Assembly: GCA_963705295.1 (NCBI GenBank)
Contig: OY970065.1
Coordinates: forward strand, 768,001 to 832,000
Direction: 5' to 3'
From: Parachlamydiales bacterium
Lineage (GTDB): Bacteria > Chlamydiota > Chlamydiia > Chlamydiales > Rhabdochlamydiaceae
DNA: 64,000 nt
Under the pieces are notes generated by a model, which had not been told where the DNA came from, made no database searches, and saw only the letters and a list, made by a program, of their open reading frames with translations. Position numbers and translations under genes: made by a program. This document shows, piece by piece, positions 1,879 to 13,165 of this stretch; within the stretch, counting starts at the first letter, position 1, and each line of letters opens with the position of its first letter.

Positions 1879-3771
1879 TTACTTCTTCTCGTCGTCGACG
1901 ATTTCGACTTCGGCTTCCTCGATGTCGGGTTTTTGCTGATCAGCAGAAGGTGCGGGGCCTTGTTGCTGTTGGCTCTGCATCGCTTCACCTATCTTTTGCA
2001 TGTAGGTGTTGAGCTCGTTGGACGTTTGCCGGATGGCATCGATATCGGAGCCTTGGAGCGCTGTTTTGACGGCGTCGATCCGGCTTTGGATATCGGAGGC
2101 GAGGTTCGCAGGGATTTTGTCCTTGTGGTCCGTGAGGGCCTTCTGGGCACGGAAGGAGAGAGCATCGGCTTCGTTGCGAGCCTCAATCTCATCTTTCCGT
2201 TTTTTATCCTCTTCTGCGTTGTCTTCGGCATCTTTGAGCATCCGCTTGATTTCCGCTTCGGTGAGACCCGATTTGGCTTCGATACGGATTTTTTGCTCTT
2301 TACCGGTTTTGGTATCTTTCGCAGAGACATGGAGGATACCGTCGGCATCGATGTCGAAACAGACTTCAATCTGAGGCATTCCTCGAGCAGCAGGTGGGAT
2401 ATCGGTCAGGTCAAAACGGCCGATCTCTTTATTGTCTTTGGCCATCTTTCGTTCTCCTTGGAGGACGACGATGGTCACCGCAGGCTGGTTGTCAGCAGCG
2501 GTTGAGAAGATCTGTTTTTTCTGCGTCGGGATGGTTGTATTTCGCTCGACGATCGGAGTGAGCACTCCGCCCAAGGTTTCAATACCGAGGGTGAGGGGAA
2601 TGACGTCGAGGAGAAGGATATCTTTCACTTCGCCCGACAGAACGGCGCCTTGGATGGCGGCTCCGACGGCGACGACTTCATCCGGGTTCACACCTTTATG
2701 AGGCTCCCGTCCGAAAATCTCCTTCACTTTCCGCTCGACGGCAGGCATCCGGGTCATACCACCGACCAAGATCACTTCGTTGATCTGTTCTTTGGCAAGA
2801 CCGGCATCTTTGAGGGCCTTGAGGCATGGCTCGACGGTCCGCTCAACGAGGTTATGCGCGAGAGACTCGAGTTTAGCCCGTGTTAAGGTGAGGGCCAAGT
2901 GTTTGGGACCTGTTGCATCGACGGTGATGAACGGTTGGTTGATCTCGGTTGATTGGGTTCCTGAAAGTTCGATTTTGGCTTTTTCAGCAGCATCGCGGAG
3001 ACGTTGCAGCGCCATTTTATCTTTACTCAGGTCAATTCCGTGCTCTTTTTTGAACTCATCGAGCATCCACTGCAGGATGGTATTGTCAAAGTCATCTCCT
3101 CCGAGGTGGGTGTCCCCGTTGGTTGATAAAACTTCGAAAACTCCATCACCAATTTCTAGGATCGAGATATCAAATGTTCCTCCACCGAGGTCAAACACGG
3201 CGATTTTTTTGTCGTGTCCCTTGTCAAAACCATAAGCCAAGGCTGCAGCTGTAGGCTCAGGGATGATCCGTTTCACATCGAGTCCAGCAATCCGGCCTGC
3301 ATCTTTCGTCGATTGACGTTGAGAGTCATTGAAATAAGCAGGGACCGTGATGACGGCTTCGGTGATTTTCTCCCCGAGATAAGCTTCGGCAGTTTCTTTC
3401 ATCTTGATGAGAACTTGCGCACCGACCTCTTCGGGTGTGAGGATTTTCCCGTCGACTTCAAAAACGGCATCACCATTGCTGTTTTGCGTCACTTTATAAG
3501 GAACGGTTTTCAGCTCTTGCTGCACTTCGCTGAATTTGCGGCCGATGAACCGTTTTGCGGAATAAATGGTCCGCTCGGGGTTCATGACAGCTTGACGTTT
3601 CGCAGGAACTCCCACGATTCTTTCATCGGTTTTAAATCCGACAGTCGACGGCGTTGTTCGTCCTCCTTCGGCATTGGCGATGACAACGGGGGTACTTCCC
3701 TCCATGATGGAAACACACGAGTTGGTGGTTCCAAGGTCGATTCCAATGATTTTACTTTTCTTCTTGTTCAT
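1879..3771 (-). CDS. dnaK: Chaperone DnaK (Hsp70)
   Basis: [27 protein letters not shown] motifs; start placed at the ATG with GGAG SD. Confidence 0.99.
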
Positions 3772-4258
3772 TTGTTTCTCCATTTTTTGTAATAACTTTT
3801 GCAACCTTCACGCGGGCGGGCCTGATAATTCTGTCTCCACACCGGTATCCTTTGACGAATTCTTTCAGGACAGTTCCTGCAGGAATGAGGTCGGTTTCTT
3901 CCATTTCGACAGCTTCGTGTTTCGCAGCATCAAAAAGTTGTCCTTCTGACACGAATGGGGCAGCGCCGTTTTGGGCGATAATTTCTTTAAACTGAGCGAG
4001 AATCATCTGAAATCCAACAGCCCAGTTTTTCACTTCGTCCGACATCTGATTTGCGAACTGCAGAGCATTTTCAAAATTGTCGATGGGGCCCAGTATCTCG
4101 ATCAAAATATTTTCTAGAACGAACCGAGTATTTTCTTGTTTTTCTTTTTGCATCCGTTTCCGCATGTTTTCAGTCTCAGCGAGCAGACGTAGGTATTTAT
4201 CTTTGTAATCGATCACTTCCTCGACGACAGGGGCAACTACAGGGGGTTCTTCACTCAT
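3752..4258 (-). CDS. grpE: Nucleotide exchange factor GrpE
   Basis: [39 protein letters not shown]; lies between hrcA and dnaK. Confidence 0.97.
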
Positions 4259-5321
4259 GTTTATTCTCCAAAAGTAAGGCTTCGGGTTGTTTGACGGTGA
4301 TCTTAAATTTATAGAGGCTCTTCGTCAGAGAGTCGCTCAGCGCGCTAGAGACCGTCTTGAGAAGGCCAAAAAGTTTTCGATAGGGGATCCGGTTAGGGCC
4401 TAAAATCGCGATCGAACCGACAATACTCTGATGGATTTTGTACGGGATCGCAATGGCAGAACACCCTTGGAGTTGACCACCGATCCAACAGCTCAAGTCG
4501 CCGGCCTTTGCGCACTCTTGAAGAAGGGTACGGAGAGCTTCGTGGTTCTCAAAAAGGCCAAGGCCATCGGCTAAAGCAGTTGCATCGTTGAAATCGGGAT
4601 AAGCTAGCAGCTTCGAAAATCCGGTCTTGTAAATGTCTTCATCGGAAAAATAGGTCGTTTCGACAAGGTGCCGGAGCATCACTTCGCTGTAAAACCGGTT
4701 CGCTAACAGTTCCTCATCGCGAGGAAGGGTCGGCCTGTCTGCTCCGGTGAGTTTCCAGCGGAAAAAACTCTCGATCCGTTTTAAAGTGAAACTGCTCAGC
4801 TTTTTGTCGGCATAGAGAAGTTCCGTGTGGACATGACCAAAATCGGTCATCAGCACACAGAGACATCGATGGTGATCAATGCCCACCAATTTGATGTCTA
4901 AAACGAGATCGTTATCAAACCGGGGAGCTGAAAGAAATACCGCACACTTCGACGCCTCGCTCAACTTCTCAGCCACCGCCTGAAGATACCCCGCCAGTTC
5001 ACGGGTCTCCTTCCTCAATGCTTTCTCCAATTCTTTCTCTTCTAATGGTGGAGTTTTAAGATGGGTCTGGGCATACAATTGATAGGCTTGTGCAGTGGGG
5101 ATCCGGCCGCCCGAAGAGTGTTGCTGCTTGAGAAATCCTTCTTCTTCCAACTTGCCGAAATAATTCCTGATCGTAGCCGAGCTGAGCGAATCGAACCCAT
5201 TCTCTCTCAGGGTATTAGATCCGACAGGTTTCCCACTCTCCAAATACAATTCAACCAGGCCGAGTAAAACCCATCTTTCTCGTTGATCTTTAGGAGGTTT
5301 GCGCAGCATTAAACTTTTCAT
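4251..5321 (-). CDS. hrcA: Heat-inducible transcription repressor HrcA
   Basis: LSSATIRNY, QHSSGGRIPT, GSIAILGPNRIPY; first gene of the hrcA-grpE-dnaK operon. Confidence 0.96.
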   Translation of the reverse strand: MKSLMLRKPPKDQRERWVLLGLVELYLESGKPVGSNTLRENGFDSLSSATIRNYFGKLEEEGFLKQQHSSGGRIPTAQAYQLYAQTHLKTPPLEEKELEKALRKETRELAGYLQAVAEKLSEASKCAVFLSAPRFDNDLVLDIKLVGIDHHRCLCVLMTDFGHVHTELLYADKKLSSFTLKRIESFFRWKLTGADRPTLPRDEELLANRFYSEVMLRHLVETTYFSDEDIYKTGFSKLLAYPDFNDATALADGLGLFENHEALRTLLQECAKAGDLSCWIGGQLQGCSAIAIPYKIHQSIVGSIAILGPNRIPYRKLFGLLKTVSSALSDSLTKSLYKFKITVKQPEALLLENKHE

Positions 5322-5328
5322 GTTCTTT

Positions 5329-5357
5329 ATTATACTCAAATCTGCTTGAAAAGACAA
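5329..5357 (-). promoter_or_regulatory. Sigma66/70-type promoter of hrcA-grpE-dnaK
   Basis: TTGTCT-17 nt-TATAAT, ending 7 nt before the ATG at 5321. Confidence 0.7.
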
Positions 5358-5363
5358 GGATTT

Positions 5364-5390
5364 TTAGCGCTTTGTGTTGTCAATTGCTAA
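5364..5390. promoter_or_regulatory. CIRCE operator (HrcA binding site)
   Basis: TTAGCGCTT-N9-AATTGCTAA resembles the consensus TTAGCACTC-N9-GAGTGCTAA; sits just upstream of the hrcA -35. Confidence 0.8.
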
Positions 5391-7713
5391 ATTTATTGAT
5401 AAGCCCTTGAGAATCAAGGTGATATTTTAATGCCGGGTATTCTTCAATAGCTTTTTGAATATCGTTTAAAATATCGAACATGCGAGGGGCTTGTTCATAA
5501 GTCTTGTGTCCATTATTGAGGTAAAGAGTGAAGTAATTTAGTGCTTTTTTTTCTTTCCTGGTTTTTAGATAACACCAGGCAAGTCCGCGATAAGCTCGGA
5601 TGGCGGAGTGGGTGTTCTCTCCATAGTGTTCCACGCTATTGCGTAAGGCTTTTTTGAAAGTTTTTTTTGCTTTGTCGTAGTGTTTAAGGTGAAAATAACA
5701 CCACCCCATGCCACTGAGACCCAAAGAGAGATCTCCTTGTTTCTTCCCCCGAATAGAAATATGATAGTCGATTCCTTTGCTGAAAAGCTCAAAAGCTTTT
5801 TTGTAGTTTCCTTGAGCTAAAATAATCCAAGCTTTGTATATCAGACCATTGATATAAGAAGGGTGCACTTTTCCGCACGATCTCTGATAAATTTCTATCG
5901 CTTCATCACATAATTTGAGTGCTTCCAAATGGTTCCCTTGATCCCGTAGGCATAGACTGACATTGATCAATGAATTTGCGACACCGACATCAATTTCCCC
6001 CTTTTTTTCACGCCGAATTTTCAGAGACTGGTGATGACATTCGAGAGACTCTTCGTATCTGCCGAGTTGCCATAAAGCCACTCCTTTGGTGCTGAGGCTG
6101 CGTGTAAATTCGAGAGGTTTTTCTTCTAAAAAATGGGCATGGATCCGTATACCTTCTTGACATGCTGTCAGGGCTTCGGAAAATCTTCCTAAGTTCAGAA
6201 GAGTCCACCCGACATTATCATATGCCAATCCCAGTTCTGTTGAAGGCCCGGAGGACTGTCTTAATTGTAAAACCTTGTAATTGGACTCTAATGCCTCGGG
6301 ATAACTATCATTGAAAAGACACCACTCTGCGATCCCTTCGTGAAACAAGGCTTCCTCCGCTTTAAAGTGGACGTTATAGGTCTCGAGCCATTTTCGGACA
6401 GTGCAGGCATGCAAATACCACCATTCACCTTCTTTCCAAGAAGAAAAATCCTCAAACATATATCTTCGGACATTTTTTGCTAGAAGTGAAAGTGCCTCGC
6501 CCAGATCGTACTGAACATGTTCTTTCCGACTTTCTCGGATCATGTGTTGAAAAAAACGGTGTAGAGAAAAAGTCTTACTGTTTTCTTCATACCGGATAAT
6601 GCCATACCGCTGTAGAGACCGAAAAATATCCTTTTTCCTCATTTGGAGATTGGTTTTTTCTGAAGAACATTTTTCTGACAGCCATTCCTCTAGCCATTTC
6701 TCATGGATATGCTCGGGGTAGAGATAACTGCAGATAAAAAGCCATTCTAAGGCAAGAGGGTTTTCTTTTTCTAAAGACTTCAAAGAAAACTGCCACGATG
6801 CAGCCAAGCTTTTTAAATAACGGTGATTGATGTCTTTCGCGTCCCAAAGAGGTCCTTCTTTGTCTTGAAGTTTAGAAGAAAAGATTTTTTGGTATTCGAA
6901 GACGTCGCAACTCGGAGTTGCTTTGATGTAGTGAGCTGCATGGTTGATCAGGAGGGGAATGTTATCCAGATCGGAAGCGAGTTGCTCCATCGCCCCACTT
7001 CGCTTTTCTTCACTGATTTTCTCCAAAAGATGGATCGATTCTTCCCTGGAAAAAGGTTCGATTTCTAGAATGAATTTAGGGTTTAAAACTTTCTTTTGCG
7101 ATGTGACTAAAATGGCACCTCCTCTTTGGGGATAGTCGGTGAGATCTTGTTCCACGTTATCAAAAATGAGAAGCCAAGGGAGTTTAAAGGCGTGGTTTTC
7201 CAAATAGAAATGAACCCTTTCTCGAAGCTTCACGGAAGATTTTACAGAGGTTGAAAGACCCAGTTTCTCGGCTAAATCCCGATATCCTTGATCGATATGC
7301 TCTGGGCTATCGCATAAAAAGGTCCATATTAAGGAAAAATGGGACGAATATTGATTGGCAAACTGGATGGCGAGCTCTGTTTTACCAAATCCACCTTTTC
7401 CCCAAACCACTTGAATTTTGATGGGATCTTGTTCTTTCAAAAGATTTTTATAAAGAATGTCAAGATAATGTTGCCTCCCAACAAAGTCTGGACAGGGGGC
7501 TTTCACATTGGTGAAATAGTGTAATTTTGTCTCTTTTTTATAGAGAAAAGGAGTCACGATCAACAGAAGAAAAAGAATCGCAAAACCGATTTTTTTCATC
7601 CCTTTTGGAGTTTTCGGTTTTGAAAATTTTGGTAGTTGAGGGGGTAGCGTGAATTTCTCTATACTTTCCAATTCAGAGATGTCAAAAGAACTTTGATTAG
7701 GAATTGCAGGCAT
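5380..7713 (-). CDS. TM-anchored NB-ARC (STAND) NTPase + TPR protein (NLR-like), paralog A
   Basis: N-terminal TM (IGFAILFLLLIVTPF), FVGR, Walker A GKGGFGKT, Walker B LLIFDNVE, NIPLLI (GLPL-like), SLHRF (MHD-like), C-terminal TPRs. Confidence 0.88.
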   Translation of the reverse strand: MPAIPNQSSFDISELESIEKFTLPPQLPKFSKPKTPKGMKKIGFAILFLLLIVTPFLYKKETKLHYFTNVKAPCPDFVGRQHYLDILYKNLLKEQDPIKIQVVWGKGGFGKTELAIQFANQYSSHFSLIWTFLCDSPEHIDQGYRDLAEKLGLSTSVKSSVKLRERVHFYLENHAFKLPWLLIFDNVEQDLTDYPQRGGAILVTSQKKVLNPKFILEIEPFSREESIHLLEKISEEKRSGAMEQLASDLDNIPLLINHAAHYIKATPSCDVFEYQKIFSSKLQDKEGPLWDAKDINHRYLKSLAASWQFSLKSLEKENPLALEWLFICSYLYPEHIHEKWLEEWLSEKCSSEKTNLQMRKKDIFRSLQRYGIIRYEENSKTFSLHRFFQHMIRESRKEHVQYDLGEALSLLAKNVRRYMFEDFSSWKEGEWWYLHACTVRKWLETYNVHFKAEEALFHEGIAEWCLFNDSYPEALESNYKVLQLRQSSGPSTELGLAYDNVGWTLLNLGRFSEALTACQEGIRIHAHFLEEKPLEFTRSLSTKGVALWQLGRYEESLECHHQSLKIRREKKGEIDVGVANSLINVSLCLRDQGNHLEALKLCDEAIEIYQRSCGKVHPSYINGLIYKAWIILAQGNYKKAFELFSKGIDYHISIRGKKQGDLSLGLSGMGWCYFHLKHYDKAKKTFKKALRNSVEHYGENTHSAIRAYRGLAWCYLKTRKEKKALNYFTLYLNNGHKTYEQAPRMFDILNDIQKAIEEYPALKYHLDSQGLINKFSN

Positions 7714-7773
7714 ATTTCGGAAAAAATGATAGTACTTCGGTTGATTTAGCTTCTATGTGATAATCAAAGGAGG

Positions 7774-7936
7774 TTATTAACCCGAGGGGTCAAAAGATGA
7801 CAACCTGCTTGCTGCGGCTTCGCCATATCGATTCTCGCTCGGCATCCTTCGTATTCAAGAATGTATTCCTCGCGAGAATCAATCTGGCTTTGCCTCGCAG
7901 CGCATCTTGTCACCTTTTGACCCCTCGGGTTAATAA
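7774..7936. mobile_element. 163-bp palindromic element (MITE/RPE-like)
   Basis: Perfect 23-bp terminal inverted repeats TTATTAACCCGAGGGGTCAAAAG...CTTTTGACCCCTCGGGTTAATAA; imperfect pairing continues inward (TGACAA, GCTGCG, GATTCTCGC); more GC-rich than flanks. Confidence 0.8.
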
Positions 7937-7938
7937 TA

Positions 7939-10194
7939 ATGACTCGTAACACGATTGAATCTCTTTGCGCTCCTCCTAAACTTAAACTATTTGTTCTGAA
8001 GCGTGCCAAAAAAAAGATTTTTTTCTTACCGGTGGTGCTCATCGTTGGAGCTGTTCTTTTTAAATTCTTTTCTCCTTTTGGGGATTCTACGGAAAATGTC
8101 TATTTTGCCCATGTTAAGGGACCTTGTCCTGATTTTATTGGACGTCAAGAGTATTTGGATACTCTCAATAAAAACTTGTCTTGTCGCAAAAACAACCTTC
8201 TGGACCCGGTCAAAATCCAAGTCTTATGGGGGAAAGGCGGTTTTGGAAAAAGTGAATTGGCCATTCAATTTGCAAATCAACACCTTTCCGATTATTCGAT
8301 TATTTGGACTTTTTGTTGTGATAGTGAAGAGCTGCAGAATCAGGGATATCGTAATCTCGCTGAAAAATTAAATGTTTTAGTTCCTCAAGATCCTCCGGAT
8401 AGAATTAAAGAAAAAGTTCATTTTTTCCTTGAAAATCATACATTCAAGCTTCCGTGGTTGCTTATTTTCGATAATGTCGAAAATGAGTTGGTGATATACC
8501 CACAAAGAGGGGGCGCGATTTTAATAACCTCCCAGAAAAAAATATTAAATCCAGACTACCTTTTAGAGATCCGACCATTTTCCAGAGAAGAAAGCCTGCA
8601 GCTATTGGAAAAAATCTCCCATGAAAAGAGATCCGTTGCCATGCAGCAGTTGGTAGACGATCTGGATGGAATTCCGCTTTTAATCAACCATGCAGCGCAT
8701 TACATGAAAGCAACGGAATGCGGAGTCGATAAATATCAAAATCTTTTTTCATCTTATCTTCTTAAAAAAGAAGGACCATTATGGAAAAAAATGGATGTCA
8801 ATCATCGGTATTTAAAAAGCTTATCCGCTTCGTGGCAATTTCCGCTCAAATCACTTGAAAAAGAAAATCCTAAAGCTCTGGAGTGGCTCTATATTTGTAG
8901 TTATCTCTATGCAGAGCATATTTGTGAAGAATGGATCGGGGATTGGTTAGGTGAAGATCCCAAATCACAAATAGAAAGAAAAGAGATTCTGAAAGTCCTT
9001 CAAACCTATGGAATTATTCGTTACGAAGAAAAAACAAAATCGTTTTCCCTCCATCGTTTTTTCCAGCATATGATTCGAGAAAATAGAAAAGATCACACGG
9101 CGGAAGACTTGGGCGCAGCTGTTTCATTTTTAGGAAACTACGTAATAGATAAAAATTTTGAACATGACTCTCACTGGAAAGAGGGTGAATTTTGGTTTTT
9201 GCATGCTTGTGAACTTCAGAAGTGGCTGGGGACTACGAAGTTTTCAGAAGATAAAATTAAACGGAGTGAGGCTCTTTTACAGGAGGGGATTGGATGGAGA
9301 TTTTATAATCATTTCTGTTTTTCACAGGCCTTAGATGCGATGAATCAAGCGGTAGATTTCCATCTATCGAGGGCTGAAAAAGATCTTGCCATTCTCTGTC
9401 GGTTATATATCCGTATAGGAAAAAGTTTGAGTTGGTTGGGAAGATACGAGGAGGCTCTAGCTGTTTGTGATAAGGCTCAATCGAGTTGCCAAGAAAGAGG
9501 TTTGGTTTATTCAGCCATTCTACATATCAAAGGATGGATGTTTGAAGATCAAGGGGAATTTGAGCAAGCGGTAGATTCTCATCGTGAGGCTCTTGAAATT
9601 CGGAGAAAATTCTTAGGGAATGACCATTTGGAAGTCGCCAAAAGTTTGAGATGTGTATCCCAGAGTTTGGAGATGATGGGAAAGTATGAGGAAGCTCTTG
9701 TTGAAATTGAAAAAACATTGGAAATCATTGAGAAAACGTGTGGTAAAAATCACCATCTCTATAACGTTCGATTAGGAAATAGAGCATGGATATTATGTAG
9801 TCAGGGTTATTACAGCCAGGCTTTGAAAATTTTCGAGAGAATTTTGCAGCGTCGTCTCGTCTCTTTAAATCAAAAACTAGAACCCGATTTAGCATTTTAT
9901 TGGGAAGGGATCGGGAGATGTCATTACTATCTTGGAAATTTTAAGAAATCTAGAAAAGCATTAAAAAAATCGTTAAAAATTGGTCTTCCTTATTGGGGAG
10001 AAAATTCGGCTGCGATATTGAGAGTTTATAGTGAGCTTGGATGGAGTTATCTTAAAGATAAACATGTAAAAAAAGGACTCGAATATCTCAAGCTTCAACT
10101 TGAAATCAGTGCAAAATTGTATCCAAACAAACCGAGATTAATGCTCAATATGCAAGATTACCAAAAAGCGTTGGAAGAGGTTAAGGACCTGTGA
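7939..10194 (+). CDS. TM-anchored NB-ARC (STAND) NTPase + TPR protein (NLR-like), paralog B
   Basis: N-terminal TM (IFFLPVVLIVGAVLF), FIGR, GKGGFGKS, LLIFDNVE, GIPLLI, SLHRF, TPRs; clear paralog of 5380..7713. Confidence 0.88.
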   Translation: MTRNTIESLCAPPKLKLFVLKRAKKKIFFLPVVLIVGAVLFKFFSPFGDSTENVYFAHVKGPCPDFIGRQEYLDTLNKNLSCRKNNLLDPVKIQVLWGKGGFGKSELAIQFANQHLSDYSIIWTFCCDSEELQNQGYRNLAEKLNVLVPQDPPDRIKEKVHFFLENHTFKLPWLLIFDNVENELVIYPQRGGAILITSQKKILNPDYLLEIRPFSREESLQLLEKISHEKRSVAMQQLVDDLDGIPLLINHAAHYMKATECGVDKYQNLFSSYLLKKEGPLWKKMDVNHRYLKSLSASWQFPLKSLEKENPKALEWLYICSYLYAEHICEEWIGDWLGEDPKSQIERKEILKVLQTYGIIRYEEKTKSFSLHRFFQHMIRENRKDHTAEDLGAAVSFLGNYVIDKNFEHDSHWKEGEFWFLHACELQKWLGTTKFSEDKIKRSEALLQEGIGWRFYNHFCFSQALDAMNQAVDFHLSRAEKDLAILCRLYIRIGKSLSWLGRYEEALAVCDKAQSSCQERGLVYSAILHIKGWMFEDQGEFEQAVDSHREALEIRRKFLGNDHLEVAKSLRCVSQSLEMMGKYEEALVEIEKTLEIIEKTCGKNHHLYNVRLGNRAWILCSQGYYSQALKIFERILQRRLVSLNQKLEPDLAFYWEGIGRCHYYLGNFKKSRKALKKSLKIGLPYWGENSAAILRVYSELGWSYLKDKHVKKGLEYLKLQLEISAKLYPNKPRLMLNMQDYQKALEEVKDL

Positions 10195-13165
10195 TGGTGG
10201 GATCTTCAAGGATGAGGGGGAGGACATCGATGATGGAAGGGGCCCAGGAGAGGCCGCGGCGGTAGACGAGTCGTTGGCCGAGGAAGCAGGCGATGATGGC
10301 TTTTTTATGGACATCGGGGATTTCTTTGAGGATTCGTTCGGGGTAATGGCTGCGGAGGATGGGAGGACAGTAGTTGAGGAGAGCCTGGGTGAGTTCAGGA
10401 TTATCGAAGATGTTGAGAGGGGCTAGGTAGGATTGGAGTTCATCGGTATAGAGGTTGATCCTTTCGGAGATCCAGTCGGAGACATCGGTGAGGAAAGCTT
10501 GGCCATGAGCGGAGAGGAGGAGCTGGGCTTCATCGCGGGACCGGGCTTCGATGATCGAGAGGATATCTTCGACGAGGGACGTTTTTTCTTTGAGGAATTC
10601 TTCTTCGGTGAGGGTGAGGCCGGCGAGGACTTCGAAAGAGGAACAAATGACGCCACCTTTGTTGGCGGAGCTGTCTTTGATGACGATAACGCCGAGTTTT
10701 TCAAGGGCTCTGCGGGCACCTGGTGTGAGGTAGAGATTGCCTCCTTCGATGATCGCTTTGGAGGTCGGTTTCCCCGATTCGTCAAGGAAGTCTCGGTAGT
10801 TGTTTTCATTGAGGGTGCGGGGTCTCCCTCCGCCAGGGATAAAGACATCGGCTTTAACCGAGTGGACATGGGTGCGGAGAATATGATTCATTTCATTGCC
10901 CGAGATCCATTCTTCGACGACTTTCCCGTTTTGCTTTCGGAGGAGGAGGGTTTGTTGGGTGTAGGGGCCGGTTTCTCGCCGTTTTTTTGTATCGAGGAGA
11001 AAACCTCCTTCGTTTAATTTTTCTGCCGGATAAAATCGGATCGGTTTTTCTTGTTTGAAGAGTTCGGTGATCACCGCTAGATCGAGACCGATGGGATCAA
11101 AGATCGTTCCAGAGATATCGATTGTAGCGAGAAGTTTAGCAGTTTTGGGATAAAACCTGTAAAGATTGTACATCTGATTCCCTGCGACATCACCGTCAGG
11201 GCCACCGGTCATTTTCACGGTAAAACGGTCCATGTGAGGGTCGATACCGAGGAATTTGAGAACTTCTTCCATGTAGATGTTGACACCTCGAGAAGTCACT
11301 CCATATTCTTTGTGGTTGATGCCAGCGCCGGGTTTGCTCGACATGAACGAGCTGCCCGGTTTGTAGTGGGAGCTTTTGGCATAATTCGAGATCCAAACGA
11401 TCATCTCGTTGTGCATATTTTCATCAGGGCCAAGATAGATATATTCAGGCTTCTTGTAGTAATCGACGACATCCTTCGCTCGGAGAGTGCCGTCTGGTTC
11501 ACAGTTGATGAGCGTCATGAAACTTTCGATATACGACCGCTGCGATTGATGGAGGTATTCGAGTTTTTGCTCTTTGTGAAACGCTTGAAGTTTTTCTGTG
11601 ATATCGGGAAGCGATCTCTCTTCAAGTTCGTGTTTATAAATCTCTTCTTCGGGCATTAGACGTTCATACGGTTCCAAAAGAATGACTCCTTTGGCGCCCC
11701 CTTCAGGAATATCTTTGTTTTTTTTCTGTTGAGTGTAAGCGAGGTTATAACACTCGGAAAAAACATTATTTCGTTCTGCAAAAAACTGTTCAACACGGTC
11801 TGGGTAAACGGTTCGGAGGCCTCCGCGGGCCAAATCTCGAAATCGGATGTGGAATCCGATAAAATACATTCCTTTCATGAAAAAGATAGCAAAGGGGAGT
11901 TCTGGAAATTTCTCGACCCGGTTGTACGGAACATTTTCGAGATACCTTGGATCGAGGCGGAACGAAAAAGCGGTCTTATTTCTTCGATAAAAATTAGTTT
12001 TGAGGGTATTGTCAATGAAATTAAGACCTTGTTTGAGGATGTTTTTTCTCCGGATATCATTGGCTTCTTGCCCGGTATCGATTTTCTCGACGAGGGAGAG
12101 GAAATTATTTTTGGTTTGCAGGTATTGGTTCAGGTCATGTTTCTGAGGATGGAATTTTTCCTCAAAACCTTTGGTGAGCATCACGGTCAGTTCTGGATGG
12201 CGGCAAACTCCTTCTTCGATATGAGAAAAAGAGTAGAGGTTTGGGTCGGCATGGACAAGCACCTGGTGAATAAAGTGAACCATGGTCTTAATCAGATTGC
12301 CTAAATTCCCCCGGACGAGTTTAGTATCGACAAAGATCGCATCAATCACTTCTTGCCCAGGGAAATACTTGACCGTGACGAGTTCTTGCAAAAAGTCATC
12401 GATGTCGGCCCCACCATGGAGTCCGAGAGACATTAGTAGAATGTTGTGATCGACGTAGGTCGCGGCCATTCTTTTCAAGGCGAGGCCATGCCGGTGGATC
12501 ACGGTGGCAAGGCGGTATAAGAAATTGTATTGGGGGACATTCTTCCAAGCTAAAACAATTTGAAGGGAGGGAGACTCTTCATTTTTGACAATTTCATATT
12601 GGCAAGCATCGAGAAGTTTTGCCCTGAAAAAAACATCGAAGGCTAAAATGAGCCGATCTTTAGCGAGTGACCTTAAGAACCGGCCATTCAGGCTACTTAG
12701 TAATTTTCTAAACTCGGTTTCTGTGACTTCCGGATTGCGGGTTTTGACCTGGTTGTAAATCTCGTTGATTTTCTCTTCGGGTAATGGTTCTTTTTCCTCG
12801 TCTTTGAAGAAAATGACACCCACTCTTAGAAAAGCTGCAACATCCCGGAAAGGAGGAGGAGAATTGGAGACGAATGTCCGGTAATTTTTAATGGGCCTGC
12901 TCCGATAGTGTCTTAAGATTCTCAAATCGGCATCGGGACTATCGAGACAAAGGGCAATCCCTTTATTTTTGAGATGGATATGGGAAAAAAAATCTTGAGC
13001 ATCGAGGTCCATCAAACTGTGGGCAACGAAAACCACCGTTTCCGCATCGGCATCTTCAAAAAAACTGGGCGGCATATGGTTTTGCACCCAGGTATAAAAC
13101 TGCTCGAATTTTTTACTTTCTCGCTCGACTGCTTCTTGGAGCTCTTTTTTCCCGACAGGTGCCAT
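10181..13165 (-). CDS. gdhB: Large NAD-dependent glutamate dehydrogenase
   Basis: GFHIRFRDLARGGLR, KNKDIPEGGAKG, GPDEN, GGPDGDVAGN, SANKGGVICSSFE. Confidence 0.92.
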   Translation of the reverse strand: MAPVGKKELQEAVERESKKFEQFYTWVQNHMPPSFFEDADAETVVFVAHSLMDLDAQDFFSHIHLKNKGIALCLDSPDADLRILRHYRSRPIKNYRTFVSNSPPPFRDVAAFLRVGVIFFKDEEKEPLPEEKINEIYNQVKTRNPEVTETEFRKLLSSLNGRFLRSLAKDRLILAFDVFFRAKLLDACQYEIVKNEESPSLQIVLAWKNVPQYNFLYRLATVIHRHGLALKRMAATYVDHNILLMSLGLHGGADIDDFLQELVTVKYFPGQEVIDAIFVDTKLVRGNLGNLIKTMVHFIHQVLVHADPNLYSFSHIEEGVCRHPELTVMLTKGFEEKFHPQKHDLNQYLQTKNNFLSLVEKIDTGQEANDIRRKNILKQGLNFIDNTLKTNFYRRNKTAFSFRLDPRYLENVPYNRVEKFPELPFAIFFMKGMYFIGFHIRFRDLARGGLRTVYPDRVEQFFAERNNVFSECYNLAYTQQKKNKDIPEGGAKGVILLEPYERLMPEEEIYKHELEERSLPDITEKLQAFHKEQKLEYLHQSQRSYIESFMTLINCEPDGTLRAKDVVDYYKKPEYIYLGPDENMHNEMIVWISNYAKSSHYKPGSSFMSSKPGAGINHKEYGVTSRGVNIYMEEVLKFLGIDPHMDRFTVKMTGGPDGDVAGNQMYNLYRFYPKTAKLLATIDISGTIFDPIGLDLAVITELFKQEKPIRFYPAEKLNEGGFLLDTKKRRETGPYTQQTLLLRKQNGKVVEEWISGNEMNHILRTHVHSVKADVFIPGGGRPRTLNENNYRDFLDESGKPTSKAIIEGGNLYLTPGARRALEKLGVIVIKDSSANKGGVICSSFEVLAGLTLTEEEFLKEKTSLVEDILSIIEARSRDEAQLLLSAHGQAFLTDVSDWISERINLYTDELQSYLAPLNIFDNPELTQALLNYCPPILRSHYPERILKEIPDVHKKAIIACFLGQRLVYRRGLSWAPSIIDVLPLILEDPTITGP

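Follow-up and report, generated by a model that had tools for sequence, protein, structure and literature searches.

The window, the whole stretch of 64,000 nucleotides of chlamydial DNA analysed here, contains two divergently transcribed genes, A and B, each encoding a protein with a short N-terminal tail, one hydrophobic helix, an NB-ARC module and an array of TPRs. Both ORFs run as the sequence-only reading of this DNA had drawn them and all the motifs it quoted are present; BLASTP aligns the two products with 372 of 763 positions identical (49%, E = 0). The features of the locus, with the basis of each in brackets, are as follows:

5380..7713, minus strand: gene A, 777 aa, a STAND protein of N-tail, helix, NB-ARC and TPRs (ORF)
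7603..7713, minus strand: N-tail of A, residues 1-37, MPAIP ... IEKFTLPPQLPKF and then a K-rich patch (family consensus)
7540..7602, minus strand: hydrophobic helix of A, residues 38-58, mean KD 2.02 (hydrophobicity; helix at 43-57 in the AF2 model)
6514..7539, minus strand: NB-ARC of A, NBD plus ARC/winged helix, residues 59-400 (invariant columns, motif table, strand order of the model)
5383..6303, minus strand: TPR array of A, kinesin-light-chain (KLC) type, residues 471-777 (Pfam TPR_12/TPR_10, PDB profile matches)
7714..7938, no strand: divergent intergenic region, 225 nt (ORF bounds)
7774..7936, no strand: imperfect palindrome of 163 nt, a MITE-like dispersed repeat (inverted repeat with 72-nt arms)
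7939..10194, plus strand: gene B, 751 aa, architecture as in A (ORF, Pfam, alignment to A)
8017..8082, plus strand: hydrophobic helix of B, residues 27-48, mean KD 2.44 (hydrophobicity)
8083..9099, plus strand: NB-ARC module of B, residues 49-387 (Pfam, alignment to A, motif table)
9313..10191, plus strand: TPR array of B, residues ~459-751 (Pfam, alignment to A)

The proposal that both proteins are NLR-like STAND NTPases is supported by profile and structure searches. The Pfam NB-ARC model (PF00931) scores 31.6 bits in A and 23.2 bits in B, the latter marginally under the cut-off of 23.5, and both proteins also match DUF7779 and TPR_12/TPR_10 (four TPR_12 matches in A), the TPRs of A matching KLC1/2 among PDB profiles with E values of 1e-40 to 1e-33. 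The AF2 model of A has a mean pLDDT of 85.6, and Foldseek relates it to the STAND-TPR structure 6mfv, Apaf-1 and ZAR1 at probability 1.00. No enzymatic domain was found in A or B by Pfam, in line with the first impression of the locus. Across the 44 family members, the Walker A motif GxxxxGK[ST] is present throughout (G105-T112 in A, with G105, G107, G108, G110 and K111 as invariant columns), as is the Walker B pair D185-N186, and the MHD-like His (H385, in LHRF) is invariant, the ARC/winged-helix part being backed by the DUF7779 match. Since WLLIFDN also occurs in six of six distant homologs read by eye, the D-N pair is the norm of the subclade. The sensor-1 position, which follows strand 199-205 in the model of A, had been noticed to lack its usual Arg in both proteins; it is indeed Gln in A (Q206), in B and altogether in 39 of 44 members, Ile in one, and Arg in the four chlamydial homologs of greater distance (P0042-P0045), while T[ST]R stands there in five of six non-chlamydial homologs, likewise inspected by eye. 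Judged from these residues, the combination of a sensor-1 Gln with a D-N Walker B may leave ATP hydrolysis weak or absent.

In front of the NB-ARC module, a conserved tail of 25-60 aa (MPx[IV]P ... IExLCxPPxLxKY; across the family MPxxP...IxxLxxPPxxxK), modelled with low pLDDT in A (39-52), precedes the helix. B is alone in lacking the MPx[IV]P start and retains IESLCAPPKL. In a scan for the motif at ATG starts, the tail begins 0-13 codons past an upstream stop in seven paralogs of the genome (G000), and in an eighth, p1603, the motif lies behind a GTG start; of the 13 ATG-start ORFs of at least 150 aa that open with MPx[IVLMF]P in G000, seven belong to this family and six are unrelated. Strong hydrophobicity is confined to a single segment of 19-26 aa in every one of the 44 members, and none has a second past residue 140, which bears out the single N-terminal helix described at the outset. 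The public gene call of A starts at Met39 (P0001, 739 aa), so the helix there resembles a signal peptide; the conserved tail upstream of Met39 favours the longer ORF. A cleaved signal peptide is ruled out by this tail and by the lack of a conserved small-x-small site after the helix.

A and B belong to a family of ten paralogs within the 2.13-Mb genome, comprising six singletons, one same-strand tandem of two genes, and the divergent A/B pair. That their NB-ARC modules are similar and their TPRs diverged holds in numbers: identity is 67% in the NBD and 69% in the ARC/winged helix, against 32% for the TPR part and 20% for the hydrophobic helix. The tree joins A and B as sister genes with an SH-aLRT of 89, their branches being long (0.62 and 0.70). 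The G000 paralogs are mixed among metagenomic homologs, requiring seven label changes, which makes this an old family with subfamilies. For A against B, dN/dS is not estimable because synonymous sites are saturated (pS 0.74-0.85). A comparison of NBD with TPRs in the young tandem pair gives dN/dS of 0.08 and 0.29, and the ratio stays at or below 0.36 in every region of every pair, leaving bulk positive selection on the TPRs unsupported; selection on the family is purifying. Pseudogenes were considered and ruled out, as the frames are intact, the motifs kept and selection purifying. A scan of metagenome contigs gave, among the matches listed, homologs of at most 38% identity, and a scan of genome contigs with the single protein P0009 gave TPR-level matches only. 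From the phyletic pattern, A and B belong to a multigene family of NLR-like STAND NTPases that is restricted to Chlamydiae.

The head-to-head layout had suggested a dedicated sensor pair. A and B could accordingly be a sensor and its helper, co-regulated from a shared divergent promoter and active as a hetero-oligomer, as fits two adjacent, divergent genes that are each other's closest paralog, and the missing MPx[IV]P start of B is a small asymmetry. However, scattered singletons are largely what the genome holds, its tandem is same-strand, the multi-copy clusters of relatives are same-strand in four of four cases, and A and B share their domain set and intact motifs with no sensor/helper asymmetry. 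Moreover, the space between them is mostly the repeat, which has 42 genomic loci (29 full length), begins directly after AAGGAGG and ends 2 nt ahead of the ATG of B. The repeat shows paired changes across both arms, folds as RNA at -92.3 kcal/mol (z -11.2), and has no match in Rfam. A scan for promoter-like sequences over 5200-10400 stayed at chance level (12 found, 9.9 expected), and a terminator consensus scan near it (8 found, 4.4 expected, sd 2.1). We therefore regard a dedicated pair as very unlikely; the layout is probably left over from an old inverted duplication at this locus and no functional unit. Hetero-oligomers of A and B may nevertheless form.

The conserved partner in relatives is not the other paralog and is instead a caspase-like (Peptidase_C14)-STAND-TPR protein. 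Its single gene in G000 (G000:C1:184133-186838) lies ~110 kb from the nearest paralog and is unlinked to A and B, so for A and B themselves the link is drawn from their relatives. The encoded protein has 42% identity over 486 aa with the N-part of a fused protein in genome G156, which reads caspase-AAA-helix-NB-ARC-TPR. Peptidase_C14 stands upstream of the helix in five of 15 long relatives scanned, and eight of 31 caspase-protein homologs are fused proteins of 1294-1404 aa. Among 400 other genomes of the order, 16 have the caspase protein, 30 the NB-ARC module and 11 both, counts that are no statistical test of co-occurrence because kin genomes are not independent. In eight of the 11 double-positive genomes, a single ORF encodes both (G156, G315, G409) or their genes are neighbours on the same contig (G001, G407, G191, G221, G238): in G407 a gene for an MPAVP-helix-NB-ARC protein begins at the last base of the caspase stop codon, and in G001 the NB-ARC gene begins 6 nt past it. 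In addition, close homologs of the two families have seven contig sizes in common, which is a proxy for lying on one contig only; for the close metagenomic NB-ARC homologs (45-50% identity), gene order is likewise inferred solely from equal contig sizes. The link is common without being obligate: of the genomes other than G000, five of the 16 with the caspase protein have no NB-ARC match at threshold, and 19 of the 30 with the NB-ARC module have no caspase match. In the His/Cys dyad of the caspase, C136 is invariant and H83 nearly so. A predicted complex of the caspase C-terminal TPRs (residues 590-901) with the N-tail of A (1-40) scored 0.10 (mark 0.32), which speaks neither for nor against an interaction.

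The best reading, to which we give a probability of roughly 55%, is that the family forms an NLR-like sensor repertoire feeding a caspase-like executor, the link coming through fusion, operon and neighbour genes in relatives. Each member joins the short conserved N-tail and one membrane helix to NB-ARC, the presumed switch, and to variable TPRs of the KLC type as the presumed sensor, its caspase-like partner being fused upstream of the helix, encoded just upstream, or unlinked as in G000. Binding of a ligand by the TPR array would release the NB-ARC switch, the released proteins would oligomerise at the membrane, and the N-side, clustered in this way, would activate the caspase-like protease, by means of the tail in A and B and of the caspase module in fused forms.

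On which side of the membrane such a switch might work is suggested by the flanks of the helix. A K/R cluster marks the N flank (mean net +4.0 vs +1.75) in 34 of 44 members and in 10 of 14 long relatives, and the flanks in B carry +7 on the N side and -1 on the C side. Moreover, caspase/AAA domains of 270-600 aa that have no signal stand ahead of the same single helix in relatives; such domains are not exportable, so the C-side would lie outside if the helix spans the membrane. Charge bias and signal-less domains together predict an NB-ARC-TPR part outside the cytoplasm, which would be an unusual location. We tentatively suggest, as a possibility well short of even odds, a periplasmic STAND switch whose signal would pass the inner membrane via the clustered cytoplasmic N-tail or caspase-STAND module, and which might respond to nucleotide status or to ligands from the host or the inclusion. 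An energy-parasitic bacterium must have host ATP and ADP in its periplasm for the nucleotide antiporters, and the genome has at least four TLC nucleotide transporter genes.

The opposite topology belongs to a self-contained anti-phage receptor of the Avs kind, in which a cytoplasmic NB-ARC-TPR part detects a phage protein, the helices are bundled by oligomerisation into a membrane lesion that aborts the infection, and the caspase is irrelevant. TM segments are known in bacterial STAND/NACHT defence proteins, the TPRs diverge fastest, and the family is a multi-copy repertoire. Yet a cytoplasmic C-domain demands export of the K/R-rich tail or of a signal-less domain of several hundred residues, and the fusion and operon tie to the caspase protein is left aside. 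A defence system, one of the roles first considered, was not recovered either: PADLOC returned only a weak, generic TPR match (E 2e-4 to 3e-4), and defence genes adjoin none of the ten paralogs. Such a receptor is improbable.

Alternatively, the proteins might be secreted, host-directed effectors, for instance type III substrates with the N-tail as signal, whose NB-ARC-TPR part would act in the host cytosol, on host or inclusion membranes. They resemble other eukaryote-like repeat proteins of amoeba-associated chlamydiae, the genome encodes a SctV homolog, ankyrin and patatin modules occur in three of 15 scanned relatives of the same NB-ARC clade, and genes for LRR and F-box proteins are found close to B and to paralog p1201. 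The paralogs are also dispersed among housekeeping genes with no defence-island context, and the order of N-peptide, hydrophobic segment and large C-domain recalls Inc proteins. Type III signals are not usually conserved in sequence, whereas MPx[IV]P is a family trait among the paralogs. A helix as hydrophobic as KD 2-3 should become lodged in the inner membrane of the bacterium, which argues against secretion, as do the single helix of 19-22 aa, set against the bilobed Inc domain, and the second P-loop module across the helix in fused relatives. Secretion is doubtful.

NLR-like STAND receptors have a central part in the immunity of plants, animals and fungi and, as recently recognised, of free-living bacteria. 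The present genome, 2.1 Mb in size and from an obligate intracellular bacterium, has retained ten such proteins and a caspase-like partner, which would make up a regulated proteolytic pathway in Chlamydiae, possibly for death or dormancy. The split, operon and fused forms are a genetic argument for which proteins act together. If the predicted orientation is true, a P-loop switch would work outside the cytoplasm, enabled by the chlamydial import of host ATP, which would bear on how host or inclusion state is sensed. The family may have a role in defence, in development or in host interaction.

Among known systems, the best NCBIfam match is NF040586, the TPR protein of the FxSxx-COOH system, at 264 bits for A and 244 for B, below the cut-off of 300, and no FxSxx-type neighbours were seen around the ten paralogs. 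The nearest ESM Atlas clusters are annotated as STAND proteins of the NB-ARC-DUF7779-TPR_10/12 type, which occur in Actinomycetota, Cyanobacteriota, Chloroflexota and fungi. A and B have in common with them the WLLIFDN Walker B, an hHR MHD-like motif, DUF7779 and KLC-type TPRs; the chlamydial family differs in having the N-tail and helix instead of TIR, ParA-like or other N-domains, and Gln for Arg at sensor-1. The NBD-ARC of A also matches structures from the group of Apaf-1, CED-4 and plant CNL resistosomes such as ZAR1 and wheat G10 (5juy, 3sfz, 6j5t, 6j6i, 9h2l; Foldseek probability 1.00), at 13-15% sequence identity and with TPRs in place of WD40 or LRR. In ZAR1, alpha1 is an N-terminal helix that serves as a membrane-acting element, a possible likeness to the A/B helix; the latter is as hydrophobic as a constitutive membrane anchor. 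Plant NLR pairs of the RGA4/RGA5 type are two NLR paralogs in head-to-head orientation, and A and B share this divergent orientation, but have no integrated decoy or sensor/helper asymmetry, and their layout is not conserved in relatives. Inc proteins have a bilobed hydrophobic domain of ~40-60 aa, in contrast to the one segment found throughout this family. Supplementary Table S1 of PMC6925127 has one 'Tetratricopeptide-like' candidate, not mapped to A or B. Avs and bNACHT proteins share the effector-NTPase-TPR sensor organisation, and some have TM segments, as the accessible portions of PMC13581612 and bioRxiv 10.1101/2022.07.19.500537 list for STAND/NACHT proteins of bacterial defence; A and B differ in matching no PADLOC model beyond the generic TPR one and in lacking a defence-island context. 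A literature search naming chlamydial organisms found no paper on a chlamydial NLR-like/caspase pathway. A parallel in logic is offered by the caspase/metacaspase-STAND (NACHT or NB-ARC) proteins of multicellular bacteria, which join the same Peptidase_C14 effector, P-loop switch and TPR sensor. PMC8195603 and PMC7159879 give background on caspase/metacaspase-STAND repeat proteins, and the accessible part of PMC3501461, in which 'Chlamydi' has 0 occurrences, describes metacaspase-AAA-TM and metacaspase(in)-TM-receptor(out) architectures. Unlike these multicellular-bacterial proteins, the chlamydial system has a helix between the caspase-STAND and a second NB-ARC STAND module, or has the two split into separate genes, and its lineage is that of the obligate intracellular Chlamydiae.

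Two divergent ORFs encode the membrane-anchored NLR-like STAND paralogs A and B, each composed of an N-tail, a hydrophobic helix, an NB-ARC module and TPRs:

5380-7713, minus strand, gene A, ORF of 777 aa
7939-10194, plus strand, gene B, ORF of 751 aa

End to end, the two proteins share 372 of 763 residues (49% identity, E = 0). By region, identity is highest in ARC/WH (69%) and the NBD (67%), intermediate in the helical linker (51%), and lowest in the TPRs (32%) and the hydrophobic helix (20%). In Pfam, both carry DUF7779 and four TPR_12 stretches, together with NB-ARC at 31.6 bits in A and 23.2 bits in B (cut-off 23.5), and an enzymatic domain was found in neither. The NLR-like pair of ORFs as first described from sequence is real, far beyond chance, and the account of similar NB-ARC modules, diverged TPRs and no enzymatic domain of their own stands. 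A was modelled with AlphaFold2 from a family alignment of 42 rows (mean pLDDT 85.6); Foldseek groups the model with Apaf-1 (5juy, 3sfz), and its matches include the solved STAND-TPR protein 6mfv, the plant resistosomes 6j5t, 6j6i and 9h2l, and KLC/LGN TPR domains. A profile search of PDB sequences matched the TPRs of kinesin light chains, with E-values from 1e-40 to 1e-33.

Across 44 family members (10 paralogs from this genome and 34 database homologs), an intact Walker A, a D-N Walker B pair and an MHD-like His (LHRF) are each present in 44/44. The sensor-1 position, placed directly after strand 199-205 of the A model, is Gln in 39 members, Arg in 4 and Ile in 1; replacement of the usual Arg had been correctly noted, and the Arg carriers (P0042-P0045) are more distant chlamydial homologs. 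Since non-chlamydial homologs read WLLIFDN in 6/6 and T[ST]R in 5/6, the D-N Walker B is normal for this NB-ARC subclade, and Gln is a derived trait of the tight chlamydial clade.

The genome holding the window, G000 (one contig, C1, of 2.13 Mb and 43.8% G+C), contains ten paralogs of the family:

window 5380-10194, paralogs A and B, divergent
C1 608335-610767 and 611213-613675, tandem paralogs, same strand
C1 starts 297158, 703358, 1201120, 1603773, 1665773 and 2094817, six singleton paralogs

The sequence-only reading took A and B for a dedicated head-to-head sensor pair. Their NLR-like and membrane-anchored nature is supported, but the dedicated pair is very unlikely: G000 has six singletons and a same-strand tandem, and no sensor/helper asymmetry was seen between A and B. 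In relatives, the copies on multi-copy contigs (G273, G108, G221, G241) are same-strand in 4/4, so conservation does not extend to the head-to-head layout.

Named relatives come from Waddliaceae, Simkania, and Parachlamydiales and Anoxychlamydiales MAGs. Of 400 further genomes from the order, 30 have a match to residues 1-450 of A at E <= 1e-20, in every case at 40% identity or less; 32 homologs from other genomes at 35-50% identity are among the 120 matches listed, and an exhaustive search of representatives gave 209 clusters at E <= 1e-30. No account of this family turned up in full-text searches that named Chlamydiae or Waddlia. Maximum-likelihood analysis makes A and B sisters (SH-aLRT 89), with long branches of 0.62 and 0.70, and the G000 paralogs are intermixed with metagenomic homologs (7 label changes needed), an interleaving which indicates that the split into subfamilies predates the divergence of these organisms. 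A and B have reached saturation at synonymous sites (pS 0.74-0.85), so their inverted duplication is old. The younger tandem pair is a mosaic: dS is 0.36-0.44 up to codon 245 and at least 1.4 beyond it. This suggests that gene conversion acted on the 5' half (N-tail to NBD) or that the TPR part was swapped. In this pair the TPRs, at a dN/dS of 0.29 against 0.08 for the NBD, evolve faster, but purifying selection dominates.

Surroundings of A and B in the window are as follows:

1879-5357, same strand as A and directly downstream of it, canonical hrcA-grpE-dnaK heat-shock operon
7774-7936, 163-nt imperfect palindrome, TTATTAACCCGAGGGG ... CCCCTCGGGTTAATAA
10181-13165, minus strand, NAD-specific glutamate dehydrogenase gene, 994 aa
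13308-14132, LRR protein past the glutamate dehydrogenase gene, 274 aa
14790-18092, ORF of no known family, 1100 aa

The A-B intergenic region of 225 nt consists mostly of the palindrome, which starts directly after AAGGAGG and stops 2 nt upstream of B's ATG. Copies occur at 42 G000 loci (41 besides the window's), 29 of them full length; stem changes found in different copies are matched between the two arms, and the predicted fold has -92.3 kcal/mol (z -11.2); Rfam gave no match, and no obvious target-site duplication was found at the copies. Any regulatory region that A and B formerly had in common has been remodelled. The 3' end of B and the convergent glutamate dehydrogenase gene overlap by 14 nt (10181-10194). 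Other paralogs neighbour rpoD and recBCD-like genes, asd and lpxK, uvrC, lanthipeptide dehydratase and cyclase genes, an AcrB pump with LRR and F-box genes, and others; flanking paralog 1201120 are an LRR gene, as past B, and an F-box gene. No common neighbour or defence island was seen around the ten G000 paralogs, and PADLOC yielded no match for A/B beyond a generic TPR one.

Most family members start with MPx[IV]P, followed by IExLCxPPxLxKY, a K/R patch and one hydrophobic segment of 19-26 aa (mean KD mostly 2-3). A scan for ATG starts found 13 G000 ORFs of at least 150 aa beginning MPx[IVLMF]P, 7 of them from this family, and a comparable hydrophobic segment is absent from the six non-family ORFs; the paralog starting at 1603773 is an eighth with the MPx[IV]P motif, from a GTG start. 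B has lost the first residues of the tail. The paralog at C1 297158-299407, which lacks the entire N-tail and begins at a weaker hydrophobic segment (KD 1.13), may be 5'-truncated. In the 7 scan-listed paralogs the conserved tail starts 0-13 codons past the upstream stop, so the public call for A from Met39 (P0001) is probably too short. A classical cleaved signal peptide was rejected for the helix, which a conserved N-tail precedes.

Mean net charge is +4.0 in the 15 residues before the helix and +1.75 after it, and 34/44 members have the more positive flank on the N side. As the more positive flank stays cytoplasmic under the positive-inside rule, the predicted orientation is N-in, C-out, with NTPase and TPRs outside the cytoplasm. 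Outside Chlamydiae, a helix precedes the NB-ARC P-loop in 3/45 named loci scanned (L066, L065, L097). L066, from an intracellular Candidatus Paracaedibacteraceae MAG, has K/R on the N flank, as in chlamydial members, whereas Magnetococcales and Paracoccaceae copies have it on the C flank.

Relatives within the same NB-ARC clade have large modules at the N-terminus: among 15 long ones scanned, Peptidase_C14 is present in 5, in most cases alongside a second AAA/nSTAND P-loop, and ankyrin plus patatin in 3. These ankyrin/patatin relatives, the presence of SctV in G000 and the eukaryote-like flavour of the family would suit type III-secreted host effectors, but the single, strongly hydrophobic helix and the N-terminus conserved in sequence make this unlikely. 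The caspase forms share the single hydrophobic helix, 45-70 aa upstream of the NB-ARC P-loop, and lack a signal-peptide-like segment (maximum KD 1.31 over 19-residue windows that begin at positions 1-40); of the long relatives, 10/14 have the more positive charge on the N flank of the helix. G000 itself has a separate caspase protein:

C1 184133-186838, minus strand, caspase-AAA/STAND-TPR protein, 901 aa, no helix, sole Peptidase_C14 match in G000

Over 486 aa it matches the N-part of the fused G156 protein at 42% identity. The similarity ends at about residue 600, the point from which the fused form goes on to KKKRNHKK, the helix and NB-ARC. The caspase His/Cys dyad is conserved among 20 aligned homologs. 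Of 31 database homologs, 8 are fused forms of 1294-1404 aa that include NB-ARC. Unfused ones lie on contigs of 38895, 39271, 173961, 15994, 30402, 17994 and 6028 bp, and the same seven sizes recur among the contigs of receptor homologs at 35-50% identity; the smallest contig has room for little beyond the two genes. The caspase protein occurs in 16/400 other genomes of the order, 11 of which also have the NB-ARC module, counts over related genomes and hence non-independent observations. In these 11, the two form one ORF in 3 (G156, G315, G409), are neighbours on one contig in 5 (G001, G407, G191, G221, G238) and lie on separate contigs of fragmented assemblies in 3. In G407, the caspase gene's stop codon shares its final base with the start of the MPAVP-helix-NB-ARC gene, and in G001 the NB-ARC gene starts 6 nt past the stop. 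Fusion and operon in several families of the order are the strongest functional clue obtained. Since 19/30 other NB-ARC-positive genomes have no caspase match and 5/16 other caspase-positive genomes no NB-ARC match, the link is not obligate.

The reading we favour, at a probability of roughly 0.55, is a repertoire of membrane-anchored NLR-like sensors with a caspase-like STAND protease as output, in which the juxtaposition of A and B is incidental. Judging from known STAND behaviour, the receptor would sense a ligand, oligomerise and activate the protease, engaged in cis in the fused relatives and in trans in G000. Avs-like receptors that act on their own, using the helix as an effector that damages the membrane, seem quite improbable, even if the bacterial STAND/NACHT domain lists in two sources include TM segments (PMC13581612; bioRxiv 10.1101/2022.07.19.500537).

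A periplasmic location of the NB-ARC-TPR part is possible but less likely than not. The bias in charge and the caspase/AAA domains that precede the helix without a signal both point to it, provided that the helix crosses the bacterial inner membrane. A periplasmic P-loop switch would normally be dismissed because ATP is lacking there. Chlamydiae, however, take up host ATP via TLC-type antiporters of the inner membrane, so nucleotides must cross the periplasm, and G000 has at least four such antiporter genes. Alternatively, the helix may not be a constitutive transmembrane segment, or the proteins may be exported. The main interest of the A/B family lies in its caspase link and predicted orientation. 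A survey of prokaryotic metacaspases describes proteins with the metacaspase inside, a TM segment and a receptor outside; unlike the orientation predicted here, none in the part of the survey describing them has NB-ARC outside (PMC3501461).
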